A stretch of 64,000 nucleotides of DNA from Chrysomallon squamiferum (taxonomy: Eukaryota > Animalia > Mollusca): the NCBI GenBank assembly GCA_012295275.1, contig CM022673.1, positions 6,262,001 to 6,326,000 of the forward strand, written 5' to 3'. The notes under the pieces were generated by a model. It ran no database searches, was not told where the DNA came from, and worked only from the letters and a program-made list of their open reading frames with translations. The translations under genes and the position numbers were made by a program. Positions 20,932 to 24,171 of this stretch are shown one piece after another (the first letter of the stretch is position 1; every line of letters starts with the position of its first letter).

Positions 20932-24171
<3,240 letters not shown>

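Follow-up and report, generated by a model that had tools for sequence, protein, structure and literature searches.

The locus described here raises the question of what becomes of a Cdc25-family gene after its active-site loop has lost the catalytic cysteine. Cdc25 triggers entry into mitosis and meiosis. Dead enzyme paralogs are already a known kind; to our knowledge, dead versions of Cdc25 are familiar mainly as laboratory mutants. The gene lies on the minus strand at 20932..24171 of the window (the whole stretch of DNA analyzed, 64 kb in length) and comprises seven exons with 326 codons and a stop. All six introns begin with GT and end with AG, no stop lies inside the frame, and the GC content is 0.43 in coding sequence vs. 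0.27 in introns. We found no second Cdc25 copy within the 64-kb window. Directly downstream of the Cdc25 stop codon is a stop-free frame of 168 codons (20384-20890, minus strand) with no Pfam match. Elsewhere, the window holds an exon of a myomodulin-2-type neuropeptide precursor (57142-57618, minus strand), whose peptides match those of the slug and Aplysia myomodulin gene 2 as given in PMC7749107 and indicate that the window most likely comes from a gastropod, a C-type lectin domain exon (52025-52309, minus strand; Pfam Lectin_C, E 1.8e-08), and a 218-codon open frame (40666-41319, plus strand) that repeats a unit of about 19 residues in tandem, probably a minisatellite.

Descent from Cdc25 was indicated by both fold and intron position. 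The CH2A and CH2B blocks are present: exon 4 (22585..22680, minus strand) carries the CH2A block with DCRYPYEY and matched the solved human CDC25A, CDC25B and CDC25C (phmmer, E about 1e-7), as did exon 6 (21429..21546, minus strand). The position of the intron that follows the active-site loop is common to the window and to three canonical loci recovered by a metagenome scan (8/64 parts). All three are intron-containing animal Cdc25 genes on metagenome contigs (L001, 2273-2410; L002, 3001-5500; L003, 157-1150) with the loop HCEFSSKR, and their loop exon starts with GAINIYT and ends at a phase-2 donor. The gene shares 35-45% identity with mollusc Cdc25s. Pfam Rhodanese matches on its single exons stayed under the curated cut-off. 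A protein word search with exon 5 alone (21827..21957, minus strand) returned two candidates, neither of which scored, and no solved structure matched; the protein and a close ortholog were therefore not found in that database. Folded by itself, exon 5 gave one helix with a pTM of 0.39, which is uninformative. Single-exon MAFFT alignments built on one or two scaffolds contained errors, and A1 served only as a search query.

At the end of exon 5 lies a degenerate active-site loop (21838..21861, minus strand). The sequence-only reading had given it as F-Y-S-E-T-C-V-R, with serine in the place of the nucleophile and the loop shortened by one residue, and our minus-strand translation agrees. From F to R the loop has eight residues here vs. 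nine in L001-L003, and the codon of the loop Arg begins 14 nt before the phase-2 donor in the canonical loci (3/3) and in the window alike. When gaps were scanned against 121 homologs, the best score (43.7) was obtained with the gap after Ser-Glu, compared with 36.7 for a gap at the Cys position. Because of this intron-anchored Arg register and the gap scan, we place Ser227 (TCA, 21855-21853, minus strand) at the nucleophile position and consider one residue to be lost, giving S-X4-R with Arg232 (21840-21838, minus strand) as the loop Arg. A register with the remaining Cys230 (21846-21844, minus strand) as nucleophile was rejected since no alignment gives Arg at +6, in agreement with the earlier statement that this Cys is not followed by X5-R. 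A further part of the supposed defect, the change from His to Tyr, turned out to be ordinary, as Y-C-E-F-S-S-E-R occurs in 9/121 homologs.

Comparison of the loop across homologs (a comparison across orthologs had been proposed as a check) yielded C-X5-R in 121/121 top homologs (the best 120 of 2638 matches plus one cluster member), in contrast to S-X4-R here. This set is biased to canonical loops and therefore does not demonstrate that dead copies are rare. No dead-loop Cdc25 relative was detected among these 121 homologs or in the metagenome scan (8/64 parts), and the dead loop is thus far represented by a single species.

The loop was earlier argued to differ too much from the canonical one for a single sequencing error, and the available assemblies bear this out. 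Contigs from 3/4 sequencing runs (X1, X2, X7; studies P1, P2, P3) have no listed difference at 21838-21861, and run X4 has no contig over the stretch; this support comes from contigs rather than raw reads, and as one run may be the source of the window, it amounts to at least two independent studies. Differences of the runs from the window in exon 5 consist of a silent one at 21832 (X1, X2, X7) and an Ile-to-Val change at 21951 (X7). At 21832 the window departs from all three covering runs, which marks this base, outside the loop, as either a consensus error or an allele private to the window. An error in the assembly, or use of a canonical exon in place of this one, could appeal to this departure and to evidence that comes from contigs, but the identical loop across three studies speaks against it, as do introns 3-6, in which a check for an alternative active-site exon found no canonical loop. 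We regard the probability of such an artifact as close to negligible. Rescue by RNA editing was also rejected on the basis of the genetic code, given that base editing cannot turn TCA into a Cys codon and the missing codon is not restorable.

A pseudophosphatase is a phosphatase fold in which an essential catalytic residue has been replaced, and both features are found here. Judging from the loop, phosphatase activity, which in active Cdc25 is directed at CDK pT14/pY15, has very likely been lost. A weak yet real phosphatase with a rearranged loop could make use of Glu228 and Arg232, which are both present; nonetheless, CDC25B C473S is described as inactive in PMC13033960, and the loop in our gene is additionally shortened and has lost the Gly-Pro after its Arg, leaving this reading only a very slim chance.

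The sequence-only reading had also hinted at sulfurtransferase or redox chemistry. One study reportedly ties loop length to the selectivity for sulfur versus phosphate, which would count for a changed enzyme acting as a sulfurtransferase, or in thiol-redox reactions via Cys230, perhaps together with the DCR Cys. The length itself holds: S-E-T-C-V-R has six residues with Arg last, S-X4-R is a sulfurtransferase loop length according to PMC10135228, and two cysteines are left near the old site. However, active rhodanese loops are described there as starting with Cys (Cx4R/T or Cx5R); here position 1 is occupied by Ser227 and the sole loop Cys sits at position 4. Since the six-residue loop begins with Ser, the sulfurtransferase/redox idea is unsupported; moreover, the loop has no Gly at position 4, unlike CRKGVT, CGSGVT and CxxGxD/R (PMC10135228). 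The back-door Cys of DCR (Cys180, 22623-22621, minus strand, exon 4) is kept, as had been claimed, but 120/121 homologs have it too, and its retention needs no special explanation because its block is fully conserved (15/15). Rhodanese look-alikes of exon 5 in the ESM Atlas scored 0.76-0.78, under 0.8, and are leads only. Overall, we consider a changed enzyme distinctly improbable.

The best Cdc25 homologs (best 120 of 2638) were mostly molluscan, and two quick trees put the gene on the mollusc side (support 91) with no finer placement; the first tree was built without P0006 and the second from 33 hand-picked rows. Several species contribute many of the 121 rows (Tegillarca granosa, 8; Pecten maximus, Argopecten irradians, and Mya arenaria, 6 each). 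Mollusc Cdc25 entries are short (about 290-350 aa) and many per species, and within a given species several sit on contigs of equal length. Some of the multiple rows may be alleles or haplotigs. The Patella and Haliotis entries P0006 and P0015 contain partial Cdc25-domain repeats, which suggests tandem copies or merged models. The window gene thereby draws attention to a Cdc25 family with many copies in molluscs, and no description of such an expansion was found in the literature searched.

To evaluate whether the gene is maintained or decaying, we used the 67 columns that are near-invariant (at least 90% conserved) among homologs. Our gene retains 45/67, compared with a median of 1 (at worst 11) missed by the homologs. 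Retention was 15/15 in the CH2A core and 17/18 in the docking helix/CH2B, i.e., 32/33 positions of the core in total, vs. 3/7 in the pre-core loop (the equivalent of the 350-358 loop of CDC25A), 2/12 in the loop and helix start, 7/10 in residues 281-299, and 0/4 in the tail (SKSW). The losses were clustered (runs test, p about 0.0005), with 7/9 columns changed in the loop vs. 15/58 elsewhere (p 0.004). This pattern of a kept core and a lost loop is not random decay. Under neutral simulation to equal divergence, the sequence remained stop-free in 7/2000 runs and in 0/2000 once indels were allowed, and in 0/6000 runs did the 33 columns of the core show one change or none; the simulations begin from the present-day sequence under a simple mutation model, but the margin is wide. 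Within the species, 2/131 bases of exon 5 vs. 17/330 intron bases differed (p 0.12, not significant), which is suggestive of agreement with constraint.

These results can be set against the possibility that the gene is a redundant duplicate, either with selection on it relaxed or with its expression shut off only recently, and is turning into a pseudogene. Its branch is very long (about 1.9 vs. medians of 0.06 and 0.35 in the two trees), and relaxed selection would fit this too; the numerous mollusc paralogs and the weak contrast between exon and intron variation point the same way. On the other hand, an open frame with six intact splice junctions at such divergence and a nearly complete core are hard to reconcile with neutral drift in our simulations, and the differences of the runs from the window in exon 5 are one silent change and one Ile-to-Val. 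Signals of this kind record past constraint, and very recent silencing is therefore still compatible with them. We give the pseudogene reading a small probability. The coding sequence is likely maintained by selection, and we hold with high confidence that the gene is a catalytically dead but maintained Cdc25 copy.

As to what such a copy could do, an N-terminal motif and a docking surface point to cyclin-CDK, and a second N-terminal motif resembles a degron. Exon 1 (24022..24171, minus strand) opens at the first ATG and contains DSGLGS (residues 39-44, 24057-24040, minus strand), which resembles DSGxxS, the beta-TrCP degron consensus. Exon 2 (23338..23604, minus strand) carries basic stretches that appear NLS-like and RRRLF (residues 71-75, 23544-23530, minus strand), a putative RXL-type cyclin-docking motif. 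RRRLF and DSGLG persist although the N-terminus is much diverged, and both types are widespread in relatives: [RK][RK]xLF was present in 58/100 homolog N-termini vs. about 1% in shuffles, and DSG[LIVM]G in 52/100 vs. 0/20000 shuffles of the N-terminus of our model. The cyclin-recruiting motif of CDC25A is RRLLF (PMC11316097).

By alignment, Arg241 (21533-21531), Arg245 (21521-21519), and Tyr252 (21500-21498), all on the minus strand in exon 6, correspond to Arg446, Arg450, and Tyr455 of CDC25A, which bind the GDSEID motif of CDK2 in the CDK2-cyclin A-CDC25A structure (PMC11316097), and to R488, R492, and Y497 of CDC25B, which two reviews (PMC6406801, PMC6270710) describe as a docking hotspot at a distance from the active site. 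All three hotspot residues are thus present. Their retention, together with that of the cyclin-docking motif, next to a lost loop is the more revealing pattern, and the sequence-only reading had overlooked it. The CDC25A mutant C431S is reported to bind pT160-CDK2-cyclin A with a Kd of 15 µM (SPR) or 0.11 µM (HTRF) (PMC11316097), and binding therefore needs no catalysis.

Other CDK-facing regions have changed. Exon 3 (23016..23078, minus strand) holds an altered counterpart of the 350-358 loop of CDC25A, which contacts CDK2 (PMC11316097). In exon 7 (20932..21087, minus strand), which encodes the C-terminal helix, DLRHFR is present (Arg299 = CDC25A R502) and the SKSW block that follows is gone. 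Charge reversal of R502/K504/R506 is described to abolish binding in human CDC25A (PMC11316097); the equivalents here are Arg, Asn, and Gln, the W508 equivalent is changed too, and the tail charge of +3 equals the lowest value among the homologs (3-8; median +6, n=111). The SKSW block is also absent from L002 and L003 despite their canonical loops, showing that tails can vary, and this partly offsets the altered tail as a counter-argument. Based on these residues, CDK binding by our protein may be weak or redirected, and the docking helix may be retained partly for folding.

It is also conceivable that the dead fold mediates contacts with proteins other than cyclin-CDK, a role comparable to that of the catalytically inactive CH2 domains in MAP kinase phosphatases. 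A retained fold core with three altered CDK-facing regions would suit such a role, and there is precedent: PMC10135228 treats rhodanese domains that lack the Cys as interaction modules, and docking of kinases by CH2 domains is described in PMC8622459. Nonetheless, the residues retained in our gene include the three of the CDK/cyclin-specific hotspot, along with RRRLF, and we judge other partners to be unlikely.

We therefore favor a Cdc25 pseudophosphatase that binds cyclin-CDK as a competitor, and estimate the probability of this full mechanism at roughly 55%. The protein would be produced from the gene, dock on the cyclin through RRRLF and on the GDSEID patch of the CDK through Arg241, Arg245, and Tyr252, and hold its predicted target, cyclin-CDK1/2, without activating it. 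With the phosphate pocket remodeled, docking rather than trapping of the phosphotyrosine would account for the binding. Competition with active Cdc25 paralogs, of which we assume that this genome has one, would keep the CDK inhibited, so that the protein would act as a brake rather than a trigger of division, and the DSG motif could allow it to be destroyed on cue.

A naturally occurring dead paralog, kept by selection and equipped with the CDK-docking hotspot, would provide the cell with its own antagonist of the Cdc25 trigger. The many mollusc copies would have provided spare genes to evolve from, and a broader scenario is that, in the course of a mollusc Cdc25 expansion into a large set of short paralogs, the copy of at least one lineage turned into a natural antagonist, i.e., a degradable, cyclin-docking decoy that shields the inhibitory CDK phosphorylation against active Cdc25. 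We offer this scenario tentatively and consider it rather doubtful; if true, it would add a third kind of regulation to the Wee1/Cdc25 switch, e.g., in germ-cell arrest. No natural Cdc25 pseudophosphatase was found described in the literature searched, which consisted mostly of the main texts of open papers; supplements could contain inactive Cdc25 entries. The portions consulted of PMC8269279, PMC8622459, and PMC11110935 likewise describe neither a natural Cdc25 pseudophosphatase nor a mollusc expansion.

The closest known counterparts are the short mollusc Cdc25 paralogs, such as KUTeg_004893 of Tegillarca granosa (P0003), which is of similar length (315 aa vs. 326 here). These paralogs share with our gene the N-terminal DSG and RxLF motifs, DCRYPYEY, YPxLxxPExYLLxGGY, DLRHFR, and the docking Arg/Arg/Tyr. 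They differ in having C-X5-R, whereas the window gene has S-X4-R, lacks Gly-Pro, and is altered in the GKHQDL-type loop and the SKSW tail. The engineered substrate-trap mutants CDC25A C431S (PDB 8ROZ) and CDC25B C473S resemble our gene in the serine at the catalytic position, the fold, and the GDSEID-docking residues, but unlike it they retain S-X5-R as well as a complete C-terminal helix.

As in the window gene, the catalytic Cys has been lost naturally in STYX and MK-STYX, the latter with FSX5R (PMC8622459), and STYX competes with an active MAP kinase phosphatase for its kinase (PMC8622459). These proteins have the DUSP fold and work around MAP kinases, whereas the window gene encodes a rhodanese-fold Cdc25 with cyclin-CDK as its predicted target. 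The inactive rhodanese/CH2 domains of MAP kinase phosphatases have the Cdc25-homology fold without the catalytic Cys and are used for kinase docking (PMC10135228, PMC8622459). They are, however, accessory and fused to another catalytic domain, whereas the window gene is a recent derivative of Cdc25 whose protein has no folded domain besides the dead one.
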